The notes: generated from the letters alone by a model not told the origin. Positions 15,818-39,433 are shown, counted from the stretch's first letter. The stretch is DNA of 64,000 bases from Candidatus Nomurabacteria bacterium (GCA_031425235.1 JANPIZ010000004.1:66251-130250), one strand, 5' to 3'. Program-made: numbers and translations.

Positions 15818-15829
15818 TTGATTTCATAT

Positions 15830-18560: not shown

Positions 18561-18563
18561 ATA

Positions 18564-20504
18564 TTACTCAGTCACAAGCCCACTACCAACTGGAGCCAGA
18601 TTATCCAGAGAGAGGTCGGTACGCAAAGAGCCTTTTGCTACCCTTAGGTCTACCTTAGCAAAATCATCACGCCCGGTCAAAACTGCATCATTGATAATAA
18701 CAGCGAGATTATTTATTTGTGAGAAAAGTGGAGTAAGTGCAACTTGGAATGAAACTGTCTTCGCGGCAGTGGTAACACCTGTTGCTTTGAGTATACTGCC
18801 TGCATTCCAAACAACTTCCCGGCTCGAAGAATTAAATACGACATCCTCCGTTGCAGGTGATACAGAACCCACGAAACGCACCCACGTAGGCAACACCGCA
18901 CGCACTTGGGCTTTTGAAATATTGTTTGATGAATTTGAGATGGACCACACGATAGTATACGTGGTTTCCTTTTCAGCCTGTGGAGGTATCGGACCAGTAT
19001 TTTTAAACGCCCCAGAGTAGTACAAGGCTTTGTTTGATAATGCTAAATCAGAAGTTACTTTAATTGTTTTTGTTTCAGAATTATTTAGTTCTTGTGGCTC
19101 ATACCCAGCAACCAATTGCTTGCCCGTTATAGAAACTTCTATATTGATAGCAGGGCTATTAATTATTCCACCAATGGCTGATAAGAGCGGAATAGGATCG
19201 ATCGTAAAATTTACAGATCCAAAATCTCCTGGATTTATTTCAGCAAATTGCTCATTTGAAAATTTATCCCATACGAGAGTTGTTTGAGTTGAATCATATG
19301 TGCCCTGGTCTGCAGTGACAGTTTTTGTATTAAAAGCATTCCCTGTTATTTTTGCTCGGATTTCAAGATCGTTAACTTTTGTATCAAGGTTGTTACCCCA
19401 ATTGATGCTACCGTTAATGAGTGTTTTTGAATTTGTTGAATATTCCCTCTGCAATACGCCATTTATAGCAAGAGTCGCTTCGATAAAAGGCTTTTTAACT
19501 GACACGGTATGAGTGAGAGTGTTGAAAATAACTCCAATGTTTGATTTATCTGTTCCTCCCTGCTCACCACTATACACTCGGAAACTTTTTTGCTCACCGT
19601 CAAATACATCCACCATTCTGCCGGAAATCGAAATAGGGCGACTAACTCCAGGAGCAAGATCACCCATATTCCATATATTATTACCCATAGAGGGCTCAGG
19701 GTTTGCCGATACGAACTGGAACCCAGCGGGGTAATCTACTTTAAGCAACACACCTGAAACTGCTCTTGTAGAATTAAGTGTAGAAGTAATATTCAAGGTA
19801 ATGTTTTGATTTGGGCTCACGATGGCCGGAGCGTCGACGAGTAGATTAAGTGGTGTCGAATTAATAGTAACTTGAAAAGGTTTTTGTTTTACGAAAATCG
19901 CATTTGAACCTTCAACTCGGTATTCTATGGAGACTTTTATATCCCGCACACTTCCTTGTTCTCCAAATAAAATTAACTTTACATTCTCATTGCGCACCGA
20001 CCCGGCAGCAATAGTGCCAAGAGACTCGCGGAAATGCTCGGTTTCAGCAAGCGTATTGTTCGATGCGCCTTTTGGGTATTCAATAACAAGATCAACAAGG
20101 TCAAGTGGAGCATTGTTTCGATTAATAATACCAATAACAAGCGAAAGATCTTCTCCTCCGGCAGTAAACGTGTTCCCTATGATAGAAATATCAATATTGT
20201 TATTTGAAACAGAATTACCTGAGAAAAAGAAAATGTATGCAGCATAACCGATGGTAAGTGTAAAAAAAACTAATGAAAATATAAAAAATTTCTTAAATCG
20301 GGAAGTTTTCAAGAAAAATTTCTCCTGGAAATCTATGCTCTTTGGCTCAACTGTCTTCGTGTCTTCCCATGAATCCCGCATATCAGAAATGTGTGGATGC
20401 GAAAATGTATCATGGTGATCCATGCGTGGTTGATAGTTTTTACTAAAGAGTTTATTTTTTAACTCTTCAATCCGATTTAATTTATTCCTATCGTTAGGCA
20501 ACAT
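18564..20504 (-). CDS. large membrane-anchored extracellular protein (hypothetical)
   Basis: N-terminal cytoplasmic segment, one TM (FFIFSLVFFTLTIGYAAYIFFF), then ~550 aa of beta-rich S/T/N-rich ectodomain. Confidence 0.5.
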   Translation of the reverse strand: MLPNDRNKLNRIEELKNKLFSKNYQPRMDHHDTFSHPHISDMRDSWEDTKTVEPKSIDFQEKFFLKTSRFKKFFIFSLVFFTLTIGYAAYIFFFSGNSVSNNNIDISIIGNTFTAGGEDLSLVIGIINRNNAPLDLVDLVIEYPKGASNNTLAETEHFRESLGTIAAGSVRNENVKLILFGEQGSVRDIKVSIEYRVEGSNAIFVKQKPFQVTINSTPLNLLVDAPAIVSPNQNITLNITSTLNSTRAVSGVLLKVDYPAGFQFVSANPEPSMGNNIWNMGDLAPGVSRPISISGRMVDVFDGEQKSFRVYSGEQGGTDKSNIGVIFNTLTHTVSVKKPFIEATLAINGVLQREYSTNSKTLINGSINWGNNLDTKVNDLEIRAKITGNAFNTKTVTADQGTYDSTQTTLVWDKFSNEQFAEINPGDFGSVNFTIDPIPLLSAIGGIINSPAINIEVSITGKQLVAGYEPQELNNSETKTIKVTSDLALSNKALYYSGAFKNTGPIPPQAEKETTYTIVWSISNSSNNISKAQVRAVLPTWVRFVGSVSPATEDVVFNSSSREVVWNAGSILKATGVTTAAKTVSFQVALTPLFSQINNLAVIINDAVLTGRDDFAKVDLRVAKGSLRTDLSLDNLAPVGSGLVTE

Positions 20505-20516
20505 ATATCATATTGT

Positions 20517-20554
20517 ACCCCGTAGTGAAGTTTTTTCAAAACTCTACTACAAGG
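20517..20554. repeat. intergenic inverted-repeat element (family A)
   Basis: ccccgtagtgaagtttttt-caaaactctactacaagg, 13 nt upstream of the start of gene 18564..20504. Confidence 0.65.
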
Positions 20555-20591
20555 TGTAGCACTTTACTAGAAATTTTAAAAAGTTGTTTTT

Positions 20592-21173
20592 TTACAAGTG
20601 GGTTTCTTTGAGTGCTTTGTTTATTTGTTGCAATACATGATTCCTGGATTTTGAAGCCTCAAAAATCATACTTTCTTCAAACGGTGACCTCACAAGATTT
20701 TGCAACACTGGATTTTCCCCTATATAGCCCAAGTTATTCAATATCCGAAGGACCATAACTGCTTCAAAGCTCCGCAAATCATCTTTATCTTCAATTTTTT
20801 TTAATACCGAAAAACTATGCAGCAAATCAGTAAACAAAGCTTCGTTTGGCTCTACGCCAGCAAGAAGTCGTTTGAGAAGTCGAGTAATATTCGAAACAAT
20901 GTTCAAAGTTTCTGGTCGTTTTATAACTCCTTCAAGTGAATTTGTTTTGGATGCACTCGTAATCCGAAACGTGTTTCGCCCTTGGACAAGATCCACTTTG
21001 ATATAAGAAAAATCTTGAAGTACGTAGCGGAGCTTGGATGACATTTTTCGCACGCCAGACGCAGAGGCGTAGATCATCCCGAGGTCACGAGTAAAAATAA
21101 AATAATATTTGTCAGATTCCCGAAAATTTTTACTTCCCAATATTATCCCTTCTGTATGATAAATGTGATGCAT
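20592..21173 (-). CDS. recO: DNA repair protein RecO
   Basis: N-terminal OB-like segment (TEGIILGSKNFRESDKYYFIFTRDLGMIYASASGVRK) typical of RecO. Confidence 0.65.
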   Translation of the reverse strand: MHHIYHTEGIILGSKNFRESDKYYFIFTRDLGMIYASASGVRKMSSKLRYVLQDFSYIKVDLVQGRNTFRITSASKTNSLEGVIKRPETLNIVSNITRLLKRLLAGVEPNEALFTDLLHSFSVLKKIEDKDDLRSFEAVMVLRILNNLGYIGENPVLQNLVRSPFEESMIFEASKSRNHVLQQINKALKETHL

Positions 21174-21174
21174 T

Positions 21175-21561
21175 TTATTTTAAATTCTCATCAAGGAATT
21201 TTTTTAAGCTTTCCAAATCTTTTTTTTCGTTATCGTAATAATAAGTATCTATACCTACAGATTGTGCAATTTTTACTACTTCAGAATTATGTTCAAAATA
21301 CACTACATTGCTCGAAGCTAGATTAAAATTTTTTAACATTATCTCAAAATATTTTCGATCTGTCTTTTTAGGATTATGTTCAAGTGTAAATACCTCATAA
21401 GGCATTTTATGTAGATTGTAAGTTGGAAACTTTTCACGAGGGGCACCTGTTAGGATAATTTTTTTATTAACGTATGTATCAAGAAGCTCATTAAGAGGTT
21501 GAAATATCTGACCTTCGTCAGAAACAAAACAATTTACAGCATCGACTAAAATTATTTTCAT
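21175..21561 (-). CDS. hypothetical protein (possible HAD-like fold)
   Basis: 128 aa; IILVDAVNCF reminiscent of HAD motif I but degenerate. Confidence 0.3.
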   Translation of the reverse strand: MKIILVDAVNCFVSDEGQIFQPLNELLDTYVNKKIILTGAPREKFPTYNLHKMPYEVFTLEHNPKKTDRKYFEIMLKNFNLASSNVVYFEHNSEVVKIAQSVGIDTYYYDNEKKDLESLKKFLDENLK

Positions 21562-22148
21562 TATTTTAATATCTCGTTAATGACTTGCAGCACTTGGGGC
21601 AGTTCGTTCCATCCAGCGCTACCATTTAAATGCCCACCATTTGGTATCGAGATCAGTTTACAATTTAAATTTTTTGAAAGTTCTTCTGCGTGACCAAATG
21701 GAACCTTATCATCATTGTCCCCATGAATAACGTAAAAGTTTTTACACACTTTCTTTATATACTCAAAATCAAATGGGGTATCTAAAAAATTGTCTATTTT
21801 TCTGATTTTCGATTCTTTATCATGGGGATTAATTAAAGCACAAGGACCAGAAACCAAAATTACTCCACTAATTTTTTTACCTTCAGTTAGAGTTTCAAGG
21901 TATCGCAAAACACCCGGAACTCCGAGTGAATGCCCTATGAGTATTATTTCGTCTTCAGGAAATACATTTACAACATTATCAATTGTCTTTACCCATTCTA
22001 CCTTTTGCGGATTATTAGGTTTTGGCATCGGCAGAGCACAAGCATATATATTCTGTTTTTCTAGTTCACCCATAAGCCAAGGCCTCCAACCACCATTTGG
22101 GCTACCCATAAATCCATGAACCAAAAAAACTTTTTTCATATTACTCAA
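21561..22148 (-). CDS. alpha/beta serine hydrolase (YdeN/RBBP9-like)
   Basis: GHSLG nucleophile elbow; HG...D...H arrangement; 195 aa. Confidence 0.65.
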   Translation of the reverse strand: MSNMKKVFLVHGFMGSPNGGWRPWLMGELEKQNIYACALPMPKPNNPQKVEWVKTIDNVVNVFPEDEIILIGHSLGVPGVLRYLETLTEGKKISGVILVSGPCALINPHDKESKIRKIDNFLDTPFDFEYIKKVCKNFYVIHGDNDDKVPFGHAEELSKNLNCKLISIPNGGHLNGSAGWNELPQVLQVINEILK

Positions 22149-23373
22149 TTATAACCTCTTTTTCCGAGAATTTCATCTTTTCTAAAAAAATATCAAATTC
22201 TTCGTGATATTGCCCCGCATAACTTTGTTGAATGTTATTCACTTCATCAATTGTTTTATCTTTTCTTTTCAAATCTTTTATTCTTTCTAAATATTTCTTT
22301 CCAAAATCTGTTTGAAAAAATTCTCGATATATTTCAGACTGTGAGATGATTTCATCAATTTTTTCTGCTGTCATTTTGTCCCAATTATCTTGAATTTGTT
22401 TTAATAGTTGTGAGTCTTTCTCTACTTTTTTAGCAATTTCCGGATTTGGCTCCTTTAATATAATTTTTCCTCTACGTCCTTTTGGTAAGTATTTTTTTAA
22501 AAAATCTTCAGTTTTCATATACCCCCACACAACTTTATAGGGAGGTATACCAGTTTCTAAAAATTTCTTTACTCGCTCAATATTTATTTGTCCTTTAAAA
22601 TCAATAAATTGGCCCCAAAAGGCTCCCGTCACGTCTTCGACATTATTATCAATAACCTTAAAACCAGCACGTTTAGCGATAGCTGTATTCATAACCCATG
22701 AATGCCCAGCGATTACTTCTACTGAAGAATATGTATCCACTATTTGTTCTGCTAATTTATTAAATGATTCTGTGGGAAAAATACTTGTACTCGCGTCTGC
22801 AAGGATTTTTTTATATAGAGACTCGAGGTGGATAAACATACATCTCGTGTCCTTATTTATTTTATCTTCAGTACTTTCAAAAAAATTATTGTGATTATAT
22901 TCGATATCATAATGTATGAGACCTGCCGTCTGTTTCGGTTCTTCTTGTTCTGTTGTTAGCGTTGAATTTGTCCCTACAATTGTTACAATGGCTTTTGCTT
23001 TTTCAATTTGTAAAAATTCCTCTGTTTTTTGAATCCAATTTTCATGGTCATTTTTATAAAATGAAAGAATTTTATCAGAAAATTCTTTTTCAAGAGAAGC
23101 ATACATTTCGGTTTTCCAGTCTACTCCCTCTGGTAAAGTATTTCTACGATAGTTAATGGCTCGACTTAAAACCGGAGTGTACTTATTTAGAAGTCCTGTG
23201 AAATCGTTTACATCTACGTGTGATTCACCTTGTTCACCGAAAGGCGCAATTTTTTTTAAAAAAATTCTATCCACATATTCTAACTTTATTGCCGTTATTT
23301 TTTCATCAAGTAGCTCAGAGTGTTCCTCTATATTATGCCCTTGTATCGGTTGAGCTATACTTTCTAAATTCAT
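22141..23373 (-). CDS. hypothetical protein
   Basis: 410-aa ORF with no recognisable motifs. Confidence 0.4.
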   Translation of the reverse strand: MNLESIAQPIQGHNIEEHSELLDEKITAIKLEYVDRIFLKKIAPFGEQGESHVDVNDFTGLLNKYTPVLSRAINYRRNTLPEGVDWKTEMYASLEKEFSDKILSFYKNDHENWIQKTEEFLQIEKAKAIVTIVGTNSTLTTEQEEPKQTAGLIHYDIEYNHNNFFESTEDKINKDTRCMFIHLESLYKKILADASTSIFPTESFNKLAEQIVDTYSSVEVIAGHSWVMNTAIAKRAGFKVIDNNVEDVTGAFWGQFIDFKGQINIERVKKFLETGIPPYKVVWGYMKTEDFLKKYLPKGRRGKIILKEPNPEIAKKVEKDSQLLKQIQDNWDKMTAEKIDEIISQSEIYREFFQTDFGKKYLERIKDLKRKDKTIDEVNNIQQSYAGQYHEEFDIFLEKMKFSEKEVIIE

Positions 23374-23388
23374 CCTTATATTTTATCA

Positions 23389-23461
23389 CCCTGTAGTGAA
23401 TTTTGGAAATGCTCAAAGTACGTAAATTTAATAATTTACTTTTCCAAAATCTACTACGGGG
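23389..23461. repeat. intergenic inverted-repeat element (family A) between ileS 3' end and the start of gene 22141..23373
   Basis: ccctgtagtgaattttgg ...~38 nt... ccaaaatctactacgggg. Confidence 0.7.
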
Positions 23462-26400
23462 TATCAATTTTTACCTTAAATACCAAAGAGTCGGCTTTTA
23501 TTTCCCCGCCTGCACTAGCTGTGCTAGAAGCATTGCGGGCAGGTTCACCGTCGTTATTTTTAAAGTGTATGGTAGCAACTTGTACTGTTTTTTTCATATC
23601 CGCTTCGAATTTTTGAATCAATTTTTGTCCGTGCGCATCTGTTGCAAATGTGAGTGCCACTACGTCGCTCGGAGTCAAACCCATCTTTTTCCTCATATCC
23701 TGCAAGCCTCGTACAAGTTCACGATACGTTCCCTCTTCTTTTAATTCATGCGTGATCTTGGTATCGAGGGTAATTTTCGTGATACCTATTTTGATTTTTA
23801 CTAAATATTCAACATGTTTAATATTCAATTCATCTTTAATAATCTCGAGGTATTCTGGAGCCAAACTTTCAGCGATGATTTCCACTTGCTGCAGCGGCTG
23901 GCGAACTTTTATGCCTGCCTTCTGCCTGGCATCGAGACCGAGGGTAACAATATCTCGAGCAGTTTTCATCCGATCGATCACATTTGGTTTAAAAAAGAAG
24001 AAAAACTGAAATTTTTTCTTTGGCCACACGGAAAGATGCACGCTTTCCACATCAGTTTCATTTTTGAGCTGCTGCCAAATATCTTCCGCAGTAAACGGTG
24101 CAAATGGTGCTAATAGTTTTGATAAGGTTTTGAACACAAAATACAACGTTTTCTTTGCCTCAGCATCGCCTTCCTTTATTCGTTCTCGTGAGCGACGCAA
24201 ATACCATGTCGACAGGTCACCTATAAAATCGCGAATCGCACGTACGGGTTCGAGAAGTTTGTAATTATCTAAATGTTCAGTGGTTAATACTGTCAGTTCA
24301 TCAAGTCGAGCCAGTATCCATTGATCAAGTATGTTTGCTGACGTTGGTCTTTCGCTACTCTCTAAACTTGTATCTCGATACAATTCATAAAATGCAAGCA
24401 CGTTGTACAGCAAACTAAACACTTGCTGTGAAACTAACGCAACAGTTTTTTCATCAAAATTTTTCGATTCGCCTGGTTGATTGATCGAGTACATCCATAA
24501 GCGAATCGTGTCGACTCCGTATTTATCCATCATTGTCCAAGGGTCGACAATGTTACCAAGAGACTTTGACATTTTTTTACCTTTTGAATCAAGCAAATGC
24601 CCCAGACAAATTACATTTTTGTACGCCAATCCCCGACCCATAAGCACACCAACAGCATGCAACGTATAAAACCAGCCACGAGTCTGGTCGATGGCTTCGG
24701 AAATATAATCCGCTGGAAAACCAGGGCCCTCGACCCACTTTTTGTTTTCAAAAGGATAATGATCTTGAGCAAACGGCATCGCTCCGGAATCGAACCACAC
24801 ATCCATGACTTCTTTTGTTCGTGCAAGTTCACTACCACATACACAAACGAGCGTTACATTATCAATATATGGTCGATGTAAGTCGAGCTCATAATCTTCA
24901 TTGTGTGGTATGGTAACAAAATCAATTTGCTTATACTGTGCGTTCTTAAATAGAGCATTTTGTTCATTGCCACCCTTCTCCATAACTTCAGAGTGCCTGA
25001 AAAGTCCACCCGTCATCGCGATCGATTCGTCTACATTCAAGCCTTCGAGTACTGCATGCAACATCCAAATAGGTGCACCGTGCGAAATAATAAGAATTTT
25101 TTTATTTTTATGTTTTTCTTCGAGTTCGCAAAAAACATCTCCTATCCTTCTTTTTACATTGAGTAATGATTCACCACCATGGATAGGATTCAAAAATCTT
25201 TCCTTTTCATTTTTGAACATATCTCGATATTCATCCCAGGATTTGCCATTGAATTCTCCAGCGTCGAGTTCACCCAGCCTTTTATCGAAGACAATTTTAT
25301 TGTCTTCGATGCCTAATGATTTTTTTAGAATTTCCAATGTATCGCGTGTACGAACAAACGGAGACACCAATACAAAATCGAATTGAAGCCCTTCCTCTTT
25401 CATTTTTTTAGCTGAAGTTTCAACTTGTTGCTCTCCGACATTAGTGAGATGATCTTCATTCTCAACTCGCGATGATACCACGCCGTGTGGGCCACCCTTC
25501 ACATTACTTTCTGATTGCCCATGTCGCATGAGATAGTATTCGTTACCCGACTTTTTTGTTTTCTTTTTTAAATCTTCCACTCCCCCGACAACTTCTCTAG
25601 CATCACACGAATAACATTGCCATACCGGTAGAGGTGTGCCCCAATACCGCTCACGGGATATTGCCCAATCTTTTATTTCCCGCAACCATTCACCAAAGCG
25701 ACCATTTCTAATGTGGCTTGGCTCCCAGTTTATTTTTTGATTTTGGGAAATGAGTTCACTTTTAATTTTTCGATCTGACATCCGTATATACCATGAATCA
25801 CGTGCGTAGTAGATAAGCGCCGTTTTGCAACGCCAGCAATGTGGATATGAGTGTTTGTAGTTTTCTTGTTTGAAAAATAAATTTCTTTTCTTTAAGTCTT
25901 CTATGATATCGACTGCCAAAGTAGGTTTACCGTCGGTGTTAGTTTCTTTTACAAACCGGGCTTCCAAAAACCCTGTTCCTGAAACAAAGTTCCCTTCAGG
26001 GTTCACGAGATGATATTTAGGCAAGCCAATCTTTGTGCCAAGCACAAAGTCATCTTGACCATACATAACTGCAGTATGCACCACACCAGTACCATCTTCG
26101 ATGTTTACAAAGTCAGCAACATAAACTTTGAACATTTTTTCCGTAGATTCCCCTTTTTTCTCGAGCTGTTCTTTCAAAAATGGAAACAGTGGTTCGTATT
26201 CAAAACTGAGCAAATCCTTGCCTTTCATTTCTTCTGTAATTTCATATTCTCCACCGAGTATTTCAATTCTTTCTTTTGCTAATATTAAAAACTCATTTTC
26301 TTTTTTGACTTGTACGTATTCAATATCCTCACCTACAGCAAGAGCTACATTCCCGGGTAAAGTCCACGGAGTTGTCGTCCAAGCAAGTATGTATGTATTG

Positions 26401-27050
26401 TCCTCATTTTTTACTTTGAATTTTACATATACCGACAAATCTTTTACATCTTCGTATCCTTGTGCGAGTTCGTGCGAAGAAAGTGCGGTGCCACACCGTG
26501 GACACCATGGCACCACTTTATAGTCTTTATATAAAAGTTTCTGTTCATTAATTTTTGATACCACATTCCACAGTGACTCAATATATGTGTTATGATACGT
26601 CACATATGGATTGTCTTTATCTACCCAGTAGCCTACTCGGTCGCGATATTTATACCACACATCGACGTGTTTCCAGACACTTTCTTTGCATTTTTGATTA
26701 AATTCCGCGATACCAAAACTCTCAATTTCTCGTTTAGATTTGAGTCCAAGTTCTTTTTCGACGAGTAGCTCTACTGGCAAGCCATGGGTATCCCAGCCTC
26801 CCTTTCGGCGAACATGATACCCACGCATTGTTTTATATCGTGGAATCGCATCCTTGAATGATTGTGGAATGAGGTGATGTATACCTGGCATACCGTTTGC
26901 GGTTGGCGGTCCATCGTAAAATACAAATTCTTTTTTACCTTCAGTATTTTTTAAAGTTTTAGAAAAAATATTGTTCTCCTGCCAAAATTTTAAAACCTTT
27001 TCCTCGCGAAGAGCTTGCTCACTTTTTTGTTTTTTTTCTTGTTCGTCCAT
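23454..27050 (-). CDS. ileS: isoleucyl-tRNA synthetase with embedded histidine-phosphatase (PGAM-like) domain and a C-terminal mini-element insertion
   Basis: PTANGMPGIHH (HIGH region), KMSKSLGN, CP1 editing region; residues ~500-700 (YYLMRHGQSESN...SPFVRTRDT...LIISHGAPI) match the RHG histidine-phosphatase superfamily; [14 protein letters not shown] near the C-terminus. Confidence 0.9.
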   Translation of the reverse strand: MDEQEKKQKSEQALREEKVLKFWQENNIFSKTLKNTEGKKEFVFYDGPPTANGMPGIHHLIPQSFKDAIPRYKTMRGYHVRRKGGWDTHGLPVELLVEKELGLKSKREIESFGIAEFNQKCKESVWKHVDVWYKYRDRVGYWVDKDNPYVTYHNTYIESLWNVVSKINEQKLLYKDYKVVPWCPRCGTALSSHELAQGYEDVKDLSVYVKFKVKNEDNTYILAWTTTPWTLPGNVALAVGEDIEYVQVKKENEFLILAKERIEILGGEYEITEEMKGKDLLSFEYEPLFPFLKEQLEKKGESTEKMFKVYVADFVNIEDGTGVVHTAVMYGQDDFVLGTKIGLPKYHLVNPEGNFVSGTGFLEARFVKETNTDGKPTLAVDIIEDLKKRNLFFKQENYKHSYPHCWRCKTALIYYARDSWYIRMSDRKIKSELISQNQKINWEPSHIRNGRFGEWLREIKDWAISRERYWGTPLPVWQCYSCDAREVVGGVEDLKKKTKKSGNEYYLMRHGQSESNVKGGPHGVVSSRVENEDHLTNVGEQQVETSAKKMKEEGLQFDFVLVSPFVRTRDTLEILKKSLGIEDNKIVFDKRLGELDAGEFNGKSWDEYRDMFKNEKERFLNPIHGGESLLNVKRRIGDVFCELEEKHKNKKILIISHGAPIWMLHAVLEGLNVDESIAMTGGLFRHSEVMEKGGNEQNALFKNAQYKQIDFVTIPHNEDYELDLHRPYIDNVTLVCVCGSELARTKEVMDVWFDSGAMPFAQDHYPFENKKWVEGPGFPADYISEAIDQTRGWFYTLHAVGVLMGRGLAYKNVICLGHLLDSKGKKMSKSLGNIVDPWTMMDKYGVDTIRLWMYSINQPGESKNFDEKTVALVSQQVFSLLYNVLAFYELYRDTSLESSERPTSANILDQWILARLDELTVLTTEHLDNYKLLEPVRAIRDFIGDLSTWYLRRSRERIKEGDAEAKKTLYFVFKTLSKLLAPFAPFTAEDIWQQLKNETDVESVHLSVWPKKKFQFFFFFKPNVIDRMKTARDIVTLGLDARQKAGIKVRQPLQQVEIIAESLAPEYLEIIKDELNIKHVEYLVKIKIGITKITLDTKITHELKEEGTYRELVRGLQDMRKKMGLTPSDVVALTFATDAHGQKLIQKFEADMKKTVQVATIHFKNNDGEPARNASSTASAGGEIKADSLVFKVKIDTP
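23504..23543 (-). repeat. palindromic mini-element copy in frame in ileS
   Basis: Reverse complement is identical to the recA copy (cctgcccgcaatgcttctagcacagctagtgcaggcgggg). Confidence 0.85.
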
Positions 27051-27060
27051 AATATTTTTT

Positions 27061-27290
27061 ATTAAAAAAACTCGTCCCCGTACAACAATACAAGATTGTT
27101 ATACAAGGACGAGTTTCATCGCCAGAGGCGATCAAGTCGTGGTACCACCTTGTTTCAAGCCTACTAAAATTATAGAGCTTCTTAATTGTAGCTATTACGG
27201 GCATGCCCGTCGGGTTCTACTCTGTTATTCACAGTTCCTCCCGAAGCTCAGAGGTGATAGCCTCTTCAACGCTCGTGTAAAAATAATACC
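27061..27290 (-). promoter_or_regulatory. T-box riboswitch leader upstream of ileS (candidate Ile AUC specifier)
   Basis: Minus strand: extended -10 TGgTATTAT; T-box sequence AAGGTGGTACCACGA (matches GGTGGNACCGCG); UGGU bulge compatible with discriminator A73 of tRNA-Ile; terminator hairpin aactcgtcc...ggacgagttttttt directly before the ileS ATG; AUCA in a loop (gaggCUAUCAccuc). Confidence 0.75.
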
Positions 27291-27351
27291 ACACATTTAA
27301 TAAAAATAAAACAGGCGCTTTAAGGTGCGCCTGCAAAACATTAGAAATTAT

Positions 27352-27540
27352 TTAATCTACTAATTCCCATTTTCTCTTCTTGAGAGCTCGTCTCAGAGAG
27401 GACTGTTTGCGATTTTCTTTTGGTCTTGTCATTAAATGACGACATCCGACCGGCGAACAGTATCGCCGAATTTTTTCCAAAGTTGCAGAAGATTTTCTTT
27501 TTCCACAAAAATAGTACAAATCTAGACGTAGTTTTGGCAT
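27352..27540 (-). CDS. small basic Cys-containing protein (hypothetical; possibly zinc-ribbon or ribosomal-like)
   Basis: 62 aa, pI very basic; AAGGAG RBS 9 nt upstream; own terminator at 27305-27340; overlapping alternative frame 27341..27547 judged less likely. Confidence 0.45.
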   Translation of the reverse strand: MPKLRLDLYYFCGKRKSSATLEKIRRYCSPVGCRHLMTRPKENRKQSSLRRALKKRKWELVD

Positions 27541-27639
27541 TTATCACTCCTTTTAGAAAATTAAAAGAACTTAGTAAGTACTAAGTAAGTATGAACTTTT
27601 AAAATAAAAAAGCTTCCTCTGCTTGTGTATAACTTTTCA

Positions 27640-28065
27640 TTAATTATAAGCTCCAGATTGTGATTGTAATATGATTTTGCGAACTTCCTCGATAGCTTCT
27701 TCGGTGGTCATGGGGTTTTTAACCTTTTTTTCTACATAATCTTTTAAGTTTGCCACTAGTGCATCTGCGACCATCACTAATTCTCTTTCGTTTGCATTAT
27801 ATTTAAATTTTACTTCTTGGAGCCTCTCCGTCAGTGTACGCAAAAATTCCTTTGGACAACTTTTTATAATTTCATTTAAACCAAACTCAACAACTTTATG
27901 TTCCATTTTCTTCATTACGGTTCCGGGTTCTATGTGATTATTAAAAACCCGACTTGTGGCTATATTGTCCGCTGATTCAACGATCACCTTCTTTGATTCC
28001 ATTGGGTTTTCTTTGCTCATGCGGTTAATTATACACCTAGCTAACAATAAAAGGTATTCTTGCAT
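27640..28065 (-). CDS. hypothetical protein
   Basis: 141-aa ORF; likely start MSKENPMESKK. Confidence 0.4.
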   Translation of the reverse strand: MQEYLLLLARCIINRMSKENPMESKKVIVESADNIATSRVFNNHIEPGTVMKKMEHKVVEFGLNEIIKSCPKEFLRTLTERLQEVKFKYNANERELVMVADALVANLKDYVEKKVKNPMTTEEAIEEVRKIILQSQSGAYN

Positions 28066-28142
28066 TAAGTGAAAGTTTAAACGCCACGCTTCGGTTTTCG
28101 GCCAAAGCGCGGCGTTATTTTTGATTGAAAAAGAATTTCTGC

Positions 28143-28610
28143 CTATATAAATGGTACCGTCCCTGTGCCGGTACTACTACTTTGCATGCCGGCAAAACCT
28201 TTTGGCTCAGAATTTTGTTTTTCAAAAGCCTTTTGCCTTTTTTTTAATTTGACGAGATTTGGTTCAATTAAAACCTGAACCTTGTCTTCATTTTTCATTC
28301 TTTTCAATTTTAAGTTGACCCACTCCAACTTGTCATCAGGGGTGGATTTAAGTAAATATTCAAAAGAAAGCTTTACCCGTGCCAAGATTATTCTCTCAGC
28401 CTCTTCCAAAAGCTCCATTCGCTGAACAGGGCTCCCGACGTATTTTTCTTTCATTTTCGAATATTTTTCCCCAAGACTGAGGCAATCTTTTGTGATTGTT
28501 TCAGTAATGACTTCATGTGGTGGTTGAATTTTTTTCATTTTTTCTCCTAAGAACGAAATTAACCCGACTATCGAGCTGTGTTCTATAAATATGAATACCA
28601 TAAATTTCAT
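28143..28610 (-). CDS. hypothetical protein
   Basis: 155-aa ORF; likely real start MKKIQPPHEV; followed by GC hairpin terminator 28070-28110. Confidence 0.4.
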   Translation of the reverse strand: MKFMVFIFIEHSSIVGLISFLGEKMKKIQPPHEVITETITKDCLSLGEKYSKMKEKYVGSPVQRMELLEEAERIILARVKLSFEYLLKSTPDDKLEWVNLKLKRMKNEDKVQVLIEPNLVKLKKRQKAFEKQNSEPKGFAGMQSSSTGTGTVPFI

Positions 28611-28643
28611 CGCTCGTCAATTATGTCGAAAACTTAAAACCAT

Positions 28644-30263
28644 CTATTCTTGTATCAACCCAAGCTTTTTTAATCTTGAGCGTACGCCACCGGGTTGACG
28701 GCCAGTTATGGTGCATAAGTTTTTTATGGACTGATCAACTTCGAACAATTTTTTCAATTCCACGTCTTGTTCTTTACTCCATGATTTGTAGGCGTTTGGG
28801 TATATTTCCCGAATTTTCGCATACGGCTTTTCTTGCGACATTTCTGATATCGACGAAGCACTGCCTTTTTTTACTTTTTTAGTTTTATTAAAATTTCCTC
28901 CGCAAGCCAAAATAAAATTCTCGTGCATCTTTTTAATTTCTTCTTCGGGCATCTTACCAAAAAATTCGGCCGCTTGTATGGAACTTCGCTTGAACTCAAT
29001 ATCTTGTTCTAAAATTTCCGGATGTACTTTCAATGCTTGCTCATTGATACCAAGCAAGTACAAGCCTGAGAGTCTGCGGACTCGAGAAAGCGCTACGTAT
29101 CCCTGTCCATATTCAAATACTTGCGACAAATCCATAACTGCCGCATCCAAGCTCATACCTTGGCTTTTATGCACAGTGATAGCCCAGGCGAGGCGAAGTG
29201 GCACTTGTGAAATTTGTGCACGGATCTTACCATTTTCTTCGACAGTCCAATCCATTGCAGTTATTGTAATATTCTTTCCATCTCTCGTTTCAATAATTGG
29301 GTGACCACTAAACTCTTCGAATCCTACTACTACGCCCAGTGTGCCATTTACATATTTTTCCTTTTGATTGTTTTTGGTGCACATCACTACGGCACCTACC
29401 TTGAGTTCAAGTTTCTCTGGTGACAAGCAGCCTTTCTTGATCGTTTCGACAAGTTTATCATTGCCTGTTGAAATCATCTCGAATATCCGTGATCCTCCGT
29501 CGAGCTTTTCAAGCTCCCCGTTATTCACCCGATCCACATCCACATTATGCGAAAAAAGCTTGGTGATATTTTCTGGCATGTCATCAATATGTATGTGCCT
29601 ATTTGTAATATGATCCATGTGTTCCTCAGAAAAATCGTTCCGACGTATTGCGCTCAGCACCGAAAGAAATGCGGTGTCGTCCTGGCGATATTGCTCGGAA
29701 AGATAACACGTAATGAATTTAGCACGTTCCCATGCTCCTGAATCATAAGCAAACGTACCCATACGTTCTTCATCACCTAATAATGAGTTTTGTTTTTTCT
29801 GGTTGTCGTCTTTTGTCTCCCTTTTAAAAATTGGCGGTAATTGAAAAAAATCCCCTACGAGTACTATTTGTATCCCGCCGAACGGTTCAGGGTTTTGTTT
29901 TATTTCCCGGCACACCATATCCACCATGTCGAGTGTACTGGGTGAGAGCATCGATATTTCATCGATAATTAATACTTTTGTTTTGCGTACTCGCTTGCTG
30001 ATGTATTCGCTCGAAGCTATTTTATCCAAATCATATTTGTCTAATTTGTTTTTAATACCAATACCGCTCCACGAATGAATAGTCATACCCCCGATATGAG
30101 TCGCGGCAATACCTGTCGAAGCAGTAATAGCGGGATCAACCTCACACGAGCGTAAATACTCCACATACGCATTTACCGTATGTGTTTTCCCGGCACCTGG
30201 TTCCCCCGTCAAAAAAACATTAGCTCCAGTTTTTAATATGTTGAGTGCCTGCTCTTGAGTCAT
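28644..30263 (-). CDS. RecD/PIF1-like superfamily I DNA helicase with C-terminal extra domain
   Basis: Walker A GEPGAGKTH, Walker B VLIIDEISML, motif TVHKSQGMS; ~90-aa C-terminal extension. Confidence 0.75.
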   Translation of the reverse strand: MTQEQALNILKTGANVFLTGEPGAGKTHTVNAYVEYLRSCEVDPAITASTGIAATHIGGMTIHSWSGIGIKNKLDKYDLDKIASSEYISKRVRKTKVLIIDEISMLSPSTLDMVDMVCREIKQNPEPFGGIQIVLVGDFFQLPPIFKRETKDDNQKKQNSLLGDEERMGTFAYDSGAWERAKFITCYLSEQYRQDDTAFLSVLSAIRRNDFSEEHMDHITNRHIHIDDMPENITKLFSHNVDVDRVNNGELEKLDGGSRIFEMISTGNDKLVETIKKGCLSPEKLELKVGAVVMCTKNNQKEKYVNGTLGVVVGFEEFSGHPIIETRDGKNITITAMDWTVEENGKIRAQISQVPLRLAWAITVHKSQGMSLDAAVMDLSQVFEYGQGYVALSRVRRLSGLYLLGINEQALKVHPEILEQDIEFKRSSIQAAEFFGKMPEEEIKKMHENFILACGGNFNKTKKVKKGSASSISEMSQEKPYAKIREIYPNAYKSWSKEQDVELKKLFEVDQSIKNLCTITGRQPGGVRSRLKKLGLIQE

Positions 30264-30276
30264 TAGTATTATACTA

Positions 30277-32058
30277 CTACATTTTTTCTGGAGCTTGGAT
30301 ACCGAGCAGATGAAGCCCTGTTTTCATTATAAACGAAAATGCGTAGGTAAGAGTTATTTTATACGCTGAACTTTTGTCATCTTTACTCACAATGGTGTTA
30401 TTCGCATAAAAACTGTTAAACGATCTTGCAACTTCTATCAAATAATTCGCTATGTAGTGAGGCTCATATTCTCTCGCAGATCGTTCTACAACTTCATCAA
30501 ATGTATACAGCATTTTTTCAATTTCAAAAATTTCTGCTGGAAAGGCATGCGGGTCAGGGGAAATATTTTCTTTCTGTGACTTTTCTAATATAGATTTTGC
30601 TCGAGCATATGAATACTGAAGGTATGGACCCGAGTCTCCTTCAAATGAAATTGATTTGTCAAAATCGTATGCGATGTCCCCTCCAGTTGATTGTTTTAAG
30701 ATGGAGTATTTGAGCGCAGCGATACCGACGACTTCCGCGACTTTCGTTTTCTTTCCCCCGCCTGCACCAGCTATGCTGGAAGCATTGCGGGCAGGTTCAT
30801 CAGTCCATCTATCCTTCATTCGCTCTTCTACTAAATTAATAGTATCCCGAATCAAAGACTCGCCAGTAACCACATTCCCCTTTCGAGACGACATTTTACC
30901 CGAAGCCAAACGCATCATCCCGTGCGTAATGTGTTTCATTTTTGATTCGTATTCTGGATGAATAATGGAAATTGCTTTCGCGACTACCTTCATGTATTCC
31001 ATTTGTTCATTTGCAGTTACCACAATACTCAAATTCATTTCAGGCAACTTGGCAAACTTTTCCTCAGTTAATCCTAGTTCTTTTGTCTCGTAGGTAGGTA
31101 ATCCTTTCGAAGTCATGAAAACCCTGGTATGAAGTTTTGGGTCATATTTTTCCGCCTTGAAAACAACTGCTCCGTCGGAATCTTCAAAAATCATCTTGCT
31201 CCCAAGTGGGTCGATAGCTTTATTCATATTATCCTCGACCAGTTTTTGACCAAGCGGCGCTACGTAACTTTCCAAGAAATAATATTCAAATTTTGTGCCG
31301 AGTATTGTATACAAATCTTCAAACGCATTCATGGTCGCCTCAAAACCCCACGCATATATTTCATTTATCTTTTCATCACTCTTATCGTAAAGTTTTTTAT
31401 TTATTTCATCTATTTCGGCTTTCGCGTTTGGGTCATCTTCGTACAAGGCAGCGCCAGAAACATATGCCTCGCCGATGCGTGCCGCTTGGTCCGTGTGCGT
31501 ACCTGACCTGTCCTCAAGTCCTTTGTTTTTCAAAAGGCCGTATATCGCCTTGGCCACATGAAGGCCGACATCGCCTTGGTAGTTTGCGCGTGACACTACT
31601 GCTCCCGAATGTTCTAAAATAGTAGCTACTGATTCGCCAATCGCATTTGTCATCAAGTGACCTATGTGAAAAGGCTTGAATGGATTTGGATCAGTGTACT
31701 CTACCATTATTTTTTGACCTGAGAGAGTTTTGTTTTTACCAACCTCGTACCCTTTATTTACAATTTCTTCTACACTATGAGCAAAAAATTCACGTGATAA
31801 ATAGAAGTTTATAAACCCGGCCCCGGCGACCTCAATTTTTTCTATATGTGTATCTGTATTCAGTCGGAGCATTTCCGTAACTATTTTTTCAGCGAAATCT
31901 TTTGGATTCATCTGCACGCCCTTGGCTACAGCTAAAGCAATATTCGTAGAATAATCTCCCATTTTTAAATCAGCTGGATGTTCAAGAGTTATAGTACTCA
32001 CCTCTATGTTGAGATTTTGAAGTGCGTCTTGTATTAATTTTTTTATATTAGCGTGCAT
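30277..32058 (-). CDS. argS: arginyl-tRNA synthetase with in-frame mini-element insertion
   Basis: PFHIGHLMTN HIGH motif, MSSRKGN (KMSKS-like), C-terminal DALR-type helical domain; PARNASSIAGAGGG insertion; start probably MHANIKK (ORF extends to 32112). Confidence 0.85.
   Translation of the reverse strand: MHANIKKLIQDALQNLNIEVSTITLEHPADLKMGDYSTNIALAVAKGVQMNPKDFAEKIVTEMLRLNTDTHIEKIEVAGAGFINFYLSREFFAHSVEEIVNKGYEVGKNKTLSGQKIMVEYTDPNPFKPFHIGHLMTNAIGESVATILEHSGAVVSRANYQGDVGLHVAKAIYGLLKNKGLEDRSGTHTDQAARIGEAYVSGAALYEDDPNAKAEIDEINKKLYDKSDEKINEIYAWGFEATMNAFEDLYTILGTKFEYYFLESYVAPLGQKLVEDNMNKAIDPLGSKMIFEDSDGAVVFKAEKYDPKLHTRVFMTSKGLPTYETKELGLTEEKFAKLPEMNLSIVVTANEQMEYMKVVAKAISIIHPEYESKMKHITHGMMRLASGKMSSRKGNVVTGESLIRDTINLVEERMKDRWTDEPARNASSIAGAGGGKKTKVAEVVGIAALKYSILKQSTGGDIAYDFDKSISFEGDSGPYLQYSYARAKSILEKSQKENISPDPHAFPAEIFEIEKMLYTFDEVVERSAREYEPHYIANYLIEVARSFNSFYANNTIVSKDDKSSAYKITLTYAFSFIMKTGLHLLGIQAPEKM
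30755..30795 (-). repeat. palindromic mini-element copy in frame in argS
   Basis: Reverse complement cctgcccgcaatgcttccagcatagctggtgcaggcggggg; central stem ccagc-ata-gctgg with compensatory changes. Confidence 0.85.
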
Positions 32059-32062
32059 AAAT

Positions 32063-32485
32063 TTATTTTCTTCCCGTACTCCCAAATTTACCTTCACCAC
32101 GAGCTGAGTCACTTAATACCTCGACTTCTTCCAGCTCGCCGATGACTATAGGTATTATAACAAGTTGAGAAACTTTATCACCTTCTTCAAATGTATAAGG
32201 TTCGCTCGAAAGGTTTACTAGTAAGGTATTGTATTCGCCTCTATATCCTGCATCAAACACACCACCCATGTGTGTAAGCCCAGCTTTAGAGATACTACCT
32301 TTATCCATAATGATTCCTGCATAACCTTCAGGGAATTCTAACGCAAATCCATGCCAGAAGCGATAATGTTCCCCTGGCCCCACCGTCACTGTTTCCATAG
32401 CATACATATCCATACCCACATCACCCGGATGATGGTAAGTCGGCAACTTGGCTCCATCTTTTAATTTTTTTATTCTGATTTTCAT
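32063..32485 (-). CDS. dut: dUTP diphosphatase
   Basis: Conserved dUTPase motifs (AGxD, GVFDAGYRGE, KFGSTGRK-type motif V). Confidence 0.85.
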   Translation of the reverse strand: MKIRIKKLKDGAKLPTYHHPGDVGMDMYAMETVTVGPGEHYRFWHGFALEFPEGYAGIIMDKGSISKAGLTHMGGVFDAGYRGEYNTLLVNLSSEPYTFEEGDKVSQLVIIPIVIGELEEVEVLSDSARGEGKFGSTGRK

Positions 32486-32964
32486 TGAAATATATCTTTA
32501 TAGGTTTTAAAATTTGTTAGAAACATTTCTGGTTTTTCTTCCAATAATTTATCTACCTCATTTTTTGTAAACCATCTTATTTCTTCAACTTCGTCATCTT
32601 GTTTCTTAAAGGGGTAGTTGTGCTCAATCACTGCAGTAAACCATTGAACAAAATATTCATGACTTGTAGATCTCCTAATTTTTTGCCCTACTAGTGGCTT
32701 AAAACCAGTCAGCCCTATTTCCTCTTCTGCTTCTTTAATAACGTTTGACTCGTATGTTTCTCCCTCTTCTACCGTACCTGCCACCGCTGGGCCCCACAGC
32801 CCCGGATCATGTTTTTTACTTAGCGCTCTTTGTGCAAGTAATATATTACCTTCCTGGTCGGTTATCCAGAGACCAGTTACTCGACAAATATGCTTTGAGT
32901 CTCGTTCACGTCTGTCTTTGTATCCTATTATTTCATCTTGTTCATTTACAATTGGAATTTTCAT
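32482..32964 (-). CDS. Nudix hydrolase
   Basis: Nudix box GTVEEGETYESNVIKEAEEEIGL. Confidence 0.75.
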   Translation of the reverse strand: MKIPIVNEQDEIIGYKDRRERDSKHICRVTGLWITDQEGNILLAQRALSKKHDPGLWGPAVAGTVEEGETYESNVIKEAEEEIGLTGFKPLVGQKIRRSTSHEYFVQWFTAVIEHNYPFKKQDDEVEEIRWFTKNEVDKLLEEKPEMFLTNFKTYKDIFQ

Positions 32965-32965
32965 A

Positions 32966-33658
32966 TTACTTTACAATTTTTTTAACTTTTTCGTATATTT
33001 CTTTGTGGATTTCTTCACGTGTACCCATGACACCATCTTTCACACACTCTATCTTGATCCAGCCTTTTTGTGTCTTTGCGAGCCAAAGAGCTGTCTTGTT
33101 TGAATTTGTAAGATATGGAATATTACCTTCTACTATATCTTTCTTTTTACCCGTATATGCACGACTAGATACTTTATTTCTTTCTTTTATTAACCTTAAA
33201 ATTATATTGAGTGGAACATTTAAATAAAACACAGCATCAGGTTTTGGGATTTTAAAAACTTTATATTCCATTTCCTCTTGCCATTTTATAAAATTCAAAC
33301 GTTTTTTGGGATTGGAAATTTTCCCCCCTTGGTGAATCTGGTTTGCGCTCACATATCTGTTTGCCAGAACAATGTAACCTTTTGTGAGCCATTCTTCTAT
33401 TTTCTTAGATGATTCCCATCTATCTGCAGCATAAGCTATAGAAGCAATCTTTGGATGTACGTTGATCCAATTGTAATATTGCTCTGAAAGACAGTGACCA
33501 ATGAATTTTCCAAAGAAATTTTTATAATATTCCGGAAAATCAAGCAATTTTACAGTATACCCTTCTTTTGTAAGTCTTTTTTGTAAGAGTTTTACTTGAG
33601 TAGATTTACCACTTCCGTCGGTGCCATCTATTACAATCAATTTACCTTTATGTACCAT
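32966..33658 (-). CDS. tmk: thymidylate kinase-like nucleoside monophosphate kinase
   Basis: P-loop IVIDGTDGSGKSTQ, LID-like NRYVSANQIHQG (DRY-type motif). Confidence 0.65.
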   Translation of the reverse strand: MVHKGKLIVIDGTDGSGKSTQVKLLQKRLTKEGYTVKLLDFPEYYKNFFGKFIGHCLSEQYYNWINVHPKIASIAYAADRWESSKKIEEWLTKGYIVLANRYVSANQIHQGGKISNPKKRLNFIKWQEEMEYKVFKIPKPDAVFYLNVPLNIILRLIKERNKVSSRAYTGKKKDIVEGNIPYLTNSNKTALWLAKTQKGWIKIECVKDGVMGTREEIHKEIYEKVKKIVK

Positions 33659-33701
33659 CTAGAAAATATACCAGAAAAATGCTTGAATTGAAAATTGTGT
33701 T

Positions 33702-34175
33702 TTATTTACTAAGTTCTTTTAGTGCTTCTGTTGCATAAAAAAGTACATTTGGTACTAATTCCATTGATCCAAGTTCTTCTTTGCTCACCCAGCGAGTTTC
33801 TGATTTTTCATGATCGCTCAGAGAATCTAAAATTTTATCTGTGTCTGATGTAGCAAAATAAACAAAAGCGATATGTTCATGGGTGTCAGATGCTGGATGC
33901 CTTCCTAGGTAGCGTGGTGGAATTAAGTATTTATATCCCCTATTTTCTTTTACACCATGTAGTGGGCCCTGTGCATCACCGACAATTTTAATATCAAGTC
34001 CCACTTCTTCTTTTACCTCACGAATAGCTGCCTCGTTTGGATCTTCATCGAGCTCAATGTGTCCACCAACAGAAAGCCATATCTTATATTTATCATGCAT
34101 ACGCAATAAAACTTTATTTTTATGTACAATAAAAACTTCGGCAGTGAAATCAATTTTTTCGTGAATATGTGGCAT
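33702..34175 (-). CDS. Nudix hydrolase
   Basis: GGHIELDEDPNEAAIREVKEEVGL Nudix box. Confidence 0.75.
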   Translation of the reverse strand: MPHIHEKIDFTAEVFIVHKNKVLLRMHDKYKIWLSVGGHIELDEDPNEAAIREVKEEVGLDIKIVGDAQGPLHGVKENRGYKYLIPPRYLGRHPASDTHEHIAFVYFATSDTDKILDSLSDHEKSETRWVSKEELGSMELVPNVLFYATEALKELSK

Positions 34176-34191
34176 GTTGCTTTACGCTACT

Positions 34192-34608
34192 TTAATTAAG
34201 TAAAGTAAACAAATCATTTTCTGCTAAAAGTTTTTTAATATATGAATCTATTGGTTCTAGATCGGAAATCTCATCCAAACTAAACCATTTATACTTTGAG
34301 TGTTCCTCACTTAATATAATTTCCCCCTCTCCATGCCCAACATAAATCAAACGAACAACATGGTAACCTTCTTTGATAATATCTTGCCCTTTAATTAACT
34401 TAGGTTCGCCCATGATCTCAAGACCTGTTTCTTCCATGACTTCTCTTTTTAGATTATCAATTAAAGAAAATCCTTTATTGATCCGTCCACCCGGCATATC
34501 CCAATACTCTCTGTGGGGTGTTGGCTTATTTTCAAATGAGCGAAAAAGTAAAAGATATTTATTATCTTTATTCTTTAGAAAAATTTTCACCCCAACTTGT
34601 AGTTCCAT
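34192..34608 (-). CDS. Nudix hydrolase
   Basis: PGGRINKGFSLIDNLKREVMEETGL Nudix box. Confidence 0.75.
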   Translation of the reverse strand: MELQVGVKIFLKNKDNKYLLLFRSFENKPTPHREYWDMPGGRINKGFSLIDNLKREVMEETGLEIMGEPKLIKGQDIIKEGYHVVRLIYVGHGEGEIILSEEHSKYKWFSLDEISDLEPIDSYIKKLLAENDLFTLLN

Positions 34609-34613
34609 AAATT

Positions 34614-35858: not shown

Positions 35859-35895
35859 AAATTTATTATATCACAGGGTTAGAAATTATTAGAAA

Positions 35896-35969: not shown

Positions 35970-35994
35970 TAGAAAATTTAGTTTAAAGTAATTT

Positions 35995-36864: not shown

Positions 36865-36904
36865 GTTACAATAATAACATATTAATAATTAATAAATAAA
36901 AACC

Positions 36905-38957: not shown

Positions 38958-38966
38958 GTTAAATAT

Positions 38967-39431: not shown

Positions 39432-39433
39432 GT

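Follow-up and report, generated by a model that had tools for sequence, protein, structure and literature searches.

The ileS gene in the window, as we call the whole 64,000-nucleotide stretch of DNA under study, is preceded by a T-box leader that extends over positions 27064–27278 of the minus strand, immediately upstream of the gene. Judged from its predicted structure and its conservation in relatives, the leader is most probably an isoleucine-specific T-box riboswitch that would read its tRNA with an ultrashort-Stem-I decoding module and control ileS by transcription attenuation.

Identification of the leader

The search of the whole window with Rfam at gathering thresholds returned no match of any family, and the T-box emerged only in E-value mode. 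In this mode the T-box model RF00230 aligned end to end with positions 27278..27102 of the minus strand at 46 bits, with E-values of 5.9e-9 (region) and 6.3e-7 (whole window, both strands). The gathering score of RF00230 is 93 bits, and the leader falls short of it only for want of the distal part of Stem I. The initial annotation, made from the sequence alone, had named a sub-threshold covariance-model score as grounds for refuting its T-box proposal. The score is indeed below the threshold, 46 against 93 bits, but this is outweighed by the E-value and by the 30 homologous leaders and the covariation described below. The remainder of the proposal, a T-box leader governing ileS, agrees with the RF00230 match and with the presence of the IleRS coding sequence directly downstream.

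The near-consensus T-box sequence that the initial annotation had reported in the ileS 5′ UTR on the minus strand is found at 27151..27138. It agrees at 12 of 14 positions with the T-box consensus AGGGUGGNACCGCG as quoted in PMC11297988. It is also the sole match in the window to RGGTGGNACCRCG, for which 0.13 matches are expected by chance at one mismatch; a 13-nt degenerate T-box motif, with one mismatch allowed, occurred at least once in 10 of 100 shuffles. The E-value, a motif that is rare by chance and a strong terminator together indicate that the T-box observation is real and not fortuitous. Other weak Rfam matches in the region (23S-methyl, idnO, JA03, microRNAs and others) were rejected, as they only capture the long terminator hairpin. 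No further T-box-like match was found within the window either with Rfam in E-value mode or with our own covariance model R1. The earlier statement that no T-box precedes metG (11988..13427) or argS (30277..32112) thus holds.

The elements of the leader and its surroundings are listed below in the direction of transcription, each with the evidence by which it was placed.

27311..27334, minus strand: intrinsic terminator that closes the preceding transcription unit, GCAGGCGC...GCGCCUGU with a U-rich run after it (terminator scan and sequence)
27283..27291, minus strand: extended −10 promoter TGgTATTAT with a weak −35 (read from the sequence)
27245..27273, minus strand: ultrashort Stem I (Rfam alignment, fold, covariation, RNAalifold)
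27260..27255, minus strand: specifier loop CUAUCA, the 6-nt apical loop of Stem I
27258..27256, minus strand: specifier codon AUC (Ile), followed by the conserved purine A27255 (invariance among leaders)
27210..27244, minus strand: Stem II (Rfam alignment, folds, conservation in homologues)
27191..27209, minus strand: Stem IIA/B-like element, a hairpin CGGG-CAUG-CCCG followed by UAAUAGC (fold)
27157..27180, minus strand: Stem III, AAGCU-CUA ... UAG-ua-GGCUU (placed by homology)
27151..27138, minus strand: T-box sequence AAGGUGGUACCACG, a 14-mer forming the 5′ side of the antiterminator
27104..27152, minus strand: antiterminator (folds alone at −15.4 kcal/mol; Rfam alignment)
27064..27116, minus strand: intrinsic terminator, a hairpin of ~23 bp (27116..27069) with a U7 run (27070..27064)
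27050..23454, minus strand: ileS, the regulated gene, 1198 aa (Pfam tRNA-synt_1, Anticodon_1 and DUF5915)

The nearest relatives of the 300 N-terminal residues of the IleRS are 60–74% identical to it and come from metagenome-assembled genomes, which are labelled Patescibacteria, Paceibacterota, Parcubacteria, Zambryskibacteria or Nomurabacteria. These Patescibacteria-type relatives fit the CPR-like host assumed in the initial annotation. The terminator at 27311..27334 isolates ileS as a transcription unit of its own. Downstream of it lies the extended −10 element noted earlier, at 27291..27283, and its weak −35 accounts for the absence of this promoter from a consensus promoter scan. Relatives carry a promoter of the form TTGCAA-N17-TAnnnT at equal spacing from Stem I. 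Transcription is predicted to start at about A27278 or A27276, 3–5 nt 5′ of Stem I. At the other end, the distance from the U-tract to the ATG at 27050, estimated earlier at ~12 nt, is 13 nt. This spacer, AAUAAAAAAUAUU, contains no G, so no Shine-Dalgarno sequence precedes ileS.

Stem I and the specifier

Stem I consists of a predicted K-turn (AGC-GUU-GA ... UGA-GCU), a 5-bp helix (A-GAGG/CCUC-U) and the 6-nt apical loop CUAUCA. The K-turn at its base has a 3-nt bulge and tandem G.A/A.G pairs beside a covarying 3-bp C-stem. Enclosed by the two strands of the upper helix, 6 nt stand in place of 76 positions of the RF00230 model, and neither the Rfam alignment nor the sequence reveals an AG bulge, a distal loop or an elbow-binding platform in Stem I. 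The initial annotation had ascribed the shortness of the leader to a missing Stem II and pseudoknot. This proved incorrect: it is the distal two-thirds of Stem I that are absent, whereas Stem II, a IIA/B-like element and Stem III are present.

The AUC-A specifier proposed for the CUAUCA loop is strongly upheld by the homologues. The triplet AUC does not vary in any of the 31 leaders, and the base after it is a purine in each (A in 27, G in 4), while the bases on its 5′ side in the loop differ (UU, CA, CU, AU, AA, GU or UA). Specifiers CUA (Leu) and UAU (Tyr) were rejected, as those positions vary among homologues. Bacterial tRNA-Ser has the discriminator G73. The Ser codons UCA/UCG were likewise rejected: C, not a purine, would come next, the gene is ileS, and UGGU implies A73. 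Bacterial tRNA-Ile has the discriminator A73 and the anticodon GAU. Three features together identify the amino acid as isoleucine: an AUC that never varies, the location ahead of ileS, and the variable base of UGGN, here a U, which pairs with A73. No tRNA gene was found in the window or in 23 related loci, and GAU and A73 are therefore assumed for this organism.

Stem II, the IIA/B-like element and Stem III

Stem II has a basal helix UCGGG/CCCGA, an S-turn internal loop AGGAA / AGUAGAA and an apical helix CUGU/ACAG closed by the loop GAAUA. The S-turn motifs correspond to GAA and AGUA in the Rfam consensus, and the Stem II motifs GGGAAGAAA and AGUAGAACCC are nearly invariant among homologues. 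In the 24-leader alignment, four of the five pairs of the basal helix show compensatory changes.

In the element that follows, the GC of UAAUAGC may pair with G27202-C27201, which would give a 2-bp Stem IIB and a compact 19-nt pseudoknot. An alignment of the nine homologues with this element contains one compensatory event, GC/GC to GA/UC in leader L124. Since compensation amounts to this single event, the pseudoknot is at best plausible.

Stem III is flanked by the purine-rich UUAAGA on its 5′ side and by GAAA on its 3′ side. Six homologues (L020, L111, L124, L146, L110 and L173) have it in a common frame, AAUGAG-[hairpin]-GAAA-CAAGG. Although the minimum free energy fold of the 5′ domain favours an alternative hairpin that partly overlaps Stem III, we prefer the pairing suggested by homology; its exact pairs are uncertain.

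Antiterminator and terminator

The predicted antiterminator is composed of helix A1 (CAAGG/CCUUG, 5 bp), a 7-nt bulge UGGUACC and helix A2 (ACGA/UCGU, 4 bp), with an extra hairpin AUCGCC-UCU-GGCGAU (27132..27118, minus strand) inserted in the A2 loop. The UGGU of the bulge, which the initial annotation had matched to a tRNA with A73, is predicted to pair with the 3′ ACCA of the tRNA. In five homologues the outermost A1 pair is changed from C-G to U-A. In 24 homologues the T-box and the 3′ strand of the antiterminator show no variation by construction, being fixed in the pattern used for the metagenome search, and for this reason support for A1 and A2 comes mainly from the fold and this one covarying pair.

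The terminator hairpin, AAACUCGUCC...GGACGAGUU, has at least 20 pairs and a folding energy of −29.8 kcal/mol (z = −9.3), and was also detected by a pattern scan. Among 21 homologues analysed with RNAalifold, 9 of 19 terminator pairs show compensatory changes, and a run of 4–8 U follows the hairpin in all. The 3′ arm of the antiterminator is the 5′ arm of the terminator (27116..27104, minus strand), which makes the two structures mutually exclusive, an arrangement familiar from classical T-boxes. When the terminator 3′ arm is left out, the RNA folds into the specifier hairpin, Stem II, Stem IIA and the bulged antiterminator; when it is included, the terminator prevails. Both expectations raised initially are therefore borne out by the folds: an intrinsic terminator competes with the antiterminator for a common segment, and the antiterminator can form, with A1, the 7-nt bulge and A2 as expected.

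Homologous leaders in other genomes

The model R1 was built from the window leader and four relatives. A motif screen together with R1 revealed the leader upstream of ileS in six Patescibacteria genomes (L002, L004, L005, L006, L007 and L020), while the other ~20 Patescibacteria loci had no match. In several of the leaderless loci argS is followed by ileS with a spacer of ~30–80 nt, and in L004 and L006 the argS stop codon is immediately followed by the leader promoter. The argS-ileS synteny is thus conserved, with the leader present in some genomes and absent from others. A metagenome search with the pattern GGTGGTACCACG-N(1-30)-ACTCGTCC returned 120 contigs, of which R1 selected 24 at 70–159 bits. 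In all, 30 further copies of the leader were obtained, from the six genomes and the 24 metagenome contigs, with R1 scores of 70–178 bits; the next-best matches scored ~41 bits.

The downstream gene was checked in 23 of the 30 homologues and encoded IleRS in 23 of 23 cases (24 of 24 with the window). These proteins are 41–75% identical to the window protein. Five of them are only 41–44% identical, and the leader thus spans deep divergence. When RF00230 was run on 15 relatives, 14 scored 30–67 bits and L020 was unlisted at E ≤ 0.01. All are under the gathering score, so routine annotation misses leaders of this kind.

When 24 leaders were aligned to the model, standard pairs made up 95% of cells, and both partners had changed in 12 of the 21 pairs of the 5′ domain and antiterminator. 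All seven Stem I pairs have compensatory changes across 24 homologues. None of 500 shuffles reached the observed values, and sliding the partners by 1–3 columns lowered the paired fraction to 26–51%. Because this alignment had been fitted to the model, the test was repeated on the 5′ domains of 16 leaders, aligned simply with MAFFT and analysed with RNAalifold. This independent prediction recovered both Stem I helices and the base of Stem II, with compensatory changes at 7 of 10 pairs. The MAFFT alignment A1 misaligned L005 and L007, which have insertions in Stem I, and the covariance-model alignment A3 was used in its place.

The homologues differ in their complement of elements and in their spacing. 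The distance from the U-tract to the start codon, estimated from offsets, ranges from ~7 to ~200 nt. The most complete type, with an ultrashort Stem I, Stem II, IIA/B and Stem III, is represented by the window leader, L020, L111, L124, L173 and L110. Stem III is absent from L117, L158, L154, L179, L193, L103 and L166, the IIA/B element from L146, L088 and L156, and both from L002, L004, L006, L084, L136, L157, L198 and others. In leaders that have neither, a linker AAAUGAGAAGUAAA connects Stem II straight to the T-box. In a few members a short hairpin is added above the specifier, or the K-turn region contains an additional hairpin.

Mode of regulation

What the sequences themselves show are the elements of the leader, two structures that exclude each other, conservation and covariation in 30 further leaders and a specifier that fits the gene; from these we infer that the leader binds tRNA, senses its charge and lets the host polymerase terminate. 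Structures of actinobacterial ileS T-boxes (PMC7583486) are the source of the roles assigned to the K-turn, S-turn, pseudoknot and Stem III. In the proposed mechanism, transcription would begin a few nucleotides ahead of Stem I. The K-turn would let the 5-bp specifier hairpin dock on the S-turn of Stem II, with the Stem IIA/B element as a buttress. The GAU anticodon of tRNA-Ile would be clamped onto the AUC of the apical loop, with A27255 stacking beneath and no contact made with the tRNA elbow. If the tRNA is uncharged, its 3′ ACCA would pair with the UGGU of the bulge, stabilising the weak antiterminator (−15 kcal/mol) and allowing read-through into ileS. If the tRNA is charged or absent, the far stronger terminator (−30 kcal/mol) would take up the same 13 nt and transcription would stop at the U7 run, 13 nt before the start codon. 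Three features speak for termination and against translational masking: the constant presence of a U-tract, the missing Shine-Dalgarno sequence and a start codon at varying distance.

The hairpin could instead act in translation, sequestering the ribosome-binding region beside the start codon until tRNA binding releases it. Decoding modules of this architecture have so far been described for translational ileS T-boxes (PMC7583486; PMC12990946), an A2 helix with an insertion has been remarked on in translational T-boxes (PMC7583486, section 6.2), and the window hairpin, ending 13 nt from the AUG, lies close enough for an initiating ribosome to reach it. However, neither the hairpin nor the G-free spacer after it contains a Shine-Dalgarno sequence, and a sequestrator would have no need of the 4–8 U that always follow. 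Moreover, with distances of ~7 to ~200 nt to the start codon among homologues, the hairpin cannot serve in general to mask the site of initiation. Sequestration as the main mechanism was rejected on account of the U-tract, the missing Shine-Dalgarno sequence and the variable spacing, and we hold a translational T-box to be quite unlikely. The short distance to the AUG leaves room for an added effect on initiation in this genome, where attenuation would be primary and the hairpin, re-formed on read-through transcripts, would also hinder ribosomes at the A/U-rich start, whose spacer consists of A and U only and is devoid of a Shine-Dalgarno sequence. The short spacing is not conserved among homologues, and such two-level control, which we consider unlikely, would be an addition to attenuation and not an alternative to it.

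The score below the Rfam gathering threshold could also be that of a decaying relic, a canonical T-box that has lost distal Stem I and with it useful tRNA binding, and that persists as a leaky constitutive terminator or an RNA-stability element. In many close relatives argS and ileS have no leader between them, so the element is dispensable in the lineage. Decay is nevertheless hard to reconcile with the retention of AUC and the following purine in 31 of 31 leaders, and of the K-turn, both S-turn strands and the T-box bulge down to 41% IleRS identity. Changes in Stem I, Stem II and the terminator are compensatory, not disruptive, and an equally truncated Stem I is functional in Actinobacteria (PMC7583486). 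This makes a relic very unlikely. As for a chance resemblance to the T-box consensus beside an ordinary terminator, the 13-nt degenerate motif by itself can arise randomly, as the shuffles with one mismatch demonstrate. Such a coincidence is refuted by the comparative data, that is, by 30 homologous copies with covariation. It would also have to produce a covariance-model E-value of 6e-7 over the whole window and all modules in the correct order directly upstream of the matching aminoacyl-tRNA synthetase gene, and we regard it as scarcely conceivable. Transcription attenuation by an isoleucine-specific T-box remains the preferred reading.

Discussion

A working rule links an ultrashort Stem I to translational and a long Stem I to transcriptional control, and is the basis of a kinetic argument concerning the elbow platform: transcriptional T-boxes are argued to need it for fast enough tRNA capture (PMC7583486, section 6.2). 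The argument raises doubt whether a T-box that makes no elbow contact can act co-transcriptionally. The window leader and its 30 relatives appear, from their predicted structures, to depart from this rule. We consider the case evenly balanced that they form an unrecognised class of T-boxes in Patescibacteria, in which tRNA would be sensed co-transcriptionally without elbow contact by an actinobacterial-type decoding module joined to a Firmicute-style terminator. If so, the elbow platform would be no requirement for transcriptional T-boxes, and a natural counter-example would make the kinetic argument directly testable. It is unknown which T-box class evolved first (PMC7583486), and a lineage combining features of both is relevant to the order of their evolution; the class would be a candidate for a form that links the two known ones, or for an ancestral form. 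Its members without Stem III and/or IIA/B, with a sensing domain of ~100 nt, would be the smallest natural T-boxes. Stem III is regarded as indispensable in published work. Such reduced relatives are compact natural scaffolds, potentially useful for engineered tRNA-responsive switches.

Very little is known about gene regulation in Patescibacteria. These bacteria cannot make amino acids and may for this reason have a special need to monitor tRNA charging. The leader places a putative tRNA-sensing regulator of the riboswitch type in Patescibacteria (CPR) and so widens the range of T-boxes. A full-text literature search, in which subscription papers were thinly covered so that a prior description is possible, returned no paper joining T-boxes with CPR, Patescibacteria or their subgroups. 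The TBDB database (preprint) was built from earlier databases with RF00230, and short-Stem-I ileS T-boxes were sought for it only in Actinobacteria. As every scored member lies below the gathering score, the RF00230 model and threshold would need revisiting.

Ultrashort-Stem-I ileS T-boxes of Actinobacteria were reportedly described by Sherwood et al. in 2015. They are known from Mycobacterium tuberculosis, M. smegmatis and Nocardia farcinica, with structures 6UFG/6UFM (PMC7583486), and are treated as a translational class, a 2026 review included (PMC7583486; PMC12990946; PMC11297988). Their truncated Stem I cannot bind tRNA unassisted and needs the S-turn of Stem II, which latches onto the codon-anticodon helix, while the K-turn and the IIA/B element position the S-turn; Stem III, together with the purines that flank it, is part of the aminoacylation-sensing domain (PMC7583486). 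The window leader resembles them in regulating ileS, in presenting AUC and a following A in the apical loop of a Stem I made of a K-turn and a short helix, and in having no elbow platform. It shares with them an S-turn Stem II, a compact IIA/B element, Stem III, the T-box bulge and an insertion in A2. This likeness was judged from published descriptions and not from sequence alignment, and the hosts differ, Patescibacteria as opposed to Actinobacteria. The actinobacterial T-boxes sequester a Shine-Dalgarno sequence, and their control is translational and reversible, whereas the window leader has a long hairpin with a U7 run, no Shine-Dalgarno sequence and, in its homologues, a variable distance to the start codon.

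With canonical Firmicutes T-boxes (RF00230; for example B. subtilis tyrS and ileS) the leader has in common the T-box 14-mer, at 12 of 14 positions, and an antiterminator with a 7-nt bulge opposed to a terminator. It further shares their K-turn, S-turn in Stem II, IIA/B region and Stem III, and its specifier likewise fits the gene downstream. Unlike them, it has no AG bulge, distal loop or interdigitated T-loop platform, and its specifier lies in an apical and not in an internal loop. The glyQS T-boxes are, like the window leader, naturally reduced and act by transcription attenuation, which for the window leader is a prediction. Their reduction is the reverse of that seen here: glyQS drops Stem II and IIA/B and keeps a long Stem I with the elbow platform. 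The lack of a distal Stem I sets the leader apart from the canonical transcriptional class, and the lack of a Shine-Dalgarno sequestrator sets it apart from the actinobacterial translational class. By its predicted architecture it is a T-box in the broad sense, a variant that combines features of both classes.

The leader and its IleRS

The isoleucyl-tRNA synthetase (IleRS) encoded downstream of the T-box leader contains an insertion of ~210 amino acids, with one half of the catalytic domain on either side of it. A domain of the histidine-phosphatase superfamily was identified inside it:

24897..25538 (−), IleRS residues ~505–718, insertion containing Pfam His_Phos_1 (E = 1.8e-30)

The insertion is shared at an identical position by IleRS from ~40 Patescibacteria loci (31–47% identity); it is absent from the enzymes of Clostridium, Bacilli, Chloroflexi and Ignavibacteria, and from those of other loci. 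Among the papers searched, none links IleRS to a histidine-phosphatase-superfamily domain.

Leaders of the same class were found at five related loci (L154, L158, L156, L088 and L152) upstream of genes for IleRS that are 41–44% identical to the window protein and still carry the phosphatase-domain insertion. Since these five leaders precede such distant genes, the T-box leader is conserved across very divergent IleRS lineages.

Distribution of the leader in the argS-ileS region

The argS-ileS synteny is kept in the lineage, as revealed by comparison of L001, L008, L010, L012, L004 and L006. In L004 and L006, a T-box leader with its own promoter begins immediately 3′ of the argS stop codon. L001, L008, L010 and L012 are close relatives of leader-bearing genomes, yet they have no T-box leader in an argS-ileS spacer of ~30–80 nt. 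Among them, L001 encodes the closest relative of the window IleRS (74% identity). The presence of the leader in some genomes and its absence from close relatives, including L001, implies that it was repeatedly lost or gained within the lineage. In the window itself argS lies 3 kb upstream of ileS, and the intervening DNA holds an ORF for a RecD-like helicase as well as small ORFs.

A T-box motif, GGTGGTACC(G/A)CG, is also present upstream of ileS in two contigs whose metagenome-assembled genomes carry the label Muribaculaceae (Bacteroidota), at L044:1391 and L047:327; in L044 it is located immediately 5′ of GGAGG and the start codon. Finding T-boxes in Bacteroidota is unexpected, and these occurrences may therefore reflect mis-binning or another unusual case.

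The ileS start region and other RNA features

The spacer preceding the ileS start codon (27051..27063, minus strand) consists of A and U only and contains no Shine-Dalgarno sequence. The same is true of several relatives (L002, L007), which suggests that ileS initiation is Shine-Dalgarno-independent.

No tRNA genes and no Rfam families at the gathering score were found across the entire 64 kb window (1..64000). The Pseudomonas rnk leader model (gathering score 55 bits) gave two weak matches:

578..646 (−), rnk-leader-like match, 31 bits, E = 0.23
1576..1681 (−), rnk-leader-like match, 36 bits, E = 0.018

The matches lie on the same strand, 1 kb apart; they may represent a structured element that occurs twice, or may be due to chance.

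Reduced leaders and the role of Stem III

In related leaders (upstream of ileS in L002, L004, L006, L084, L136, L157 and L198; also in L117, L158, L154, L179 and L193), either or both of Stem III and the Stem IIA/B element are missing. These leaders nevertheless retain a specifier, S-turn, T-box bulge and terminator, and their sensing domain is reduced to ~100 nt. Because published work describes Stem III as indispensable for binding of the tRNA 3′ end, natural T-boxes devoid of Stem III, such as those among these reduced leaders, would not be expected on that view.
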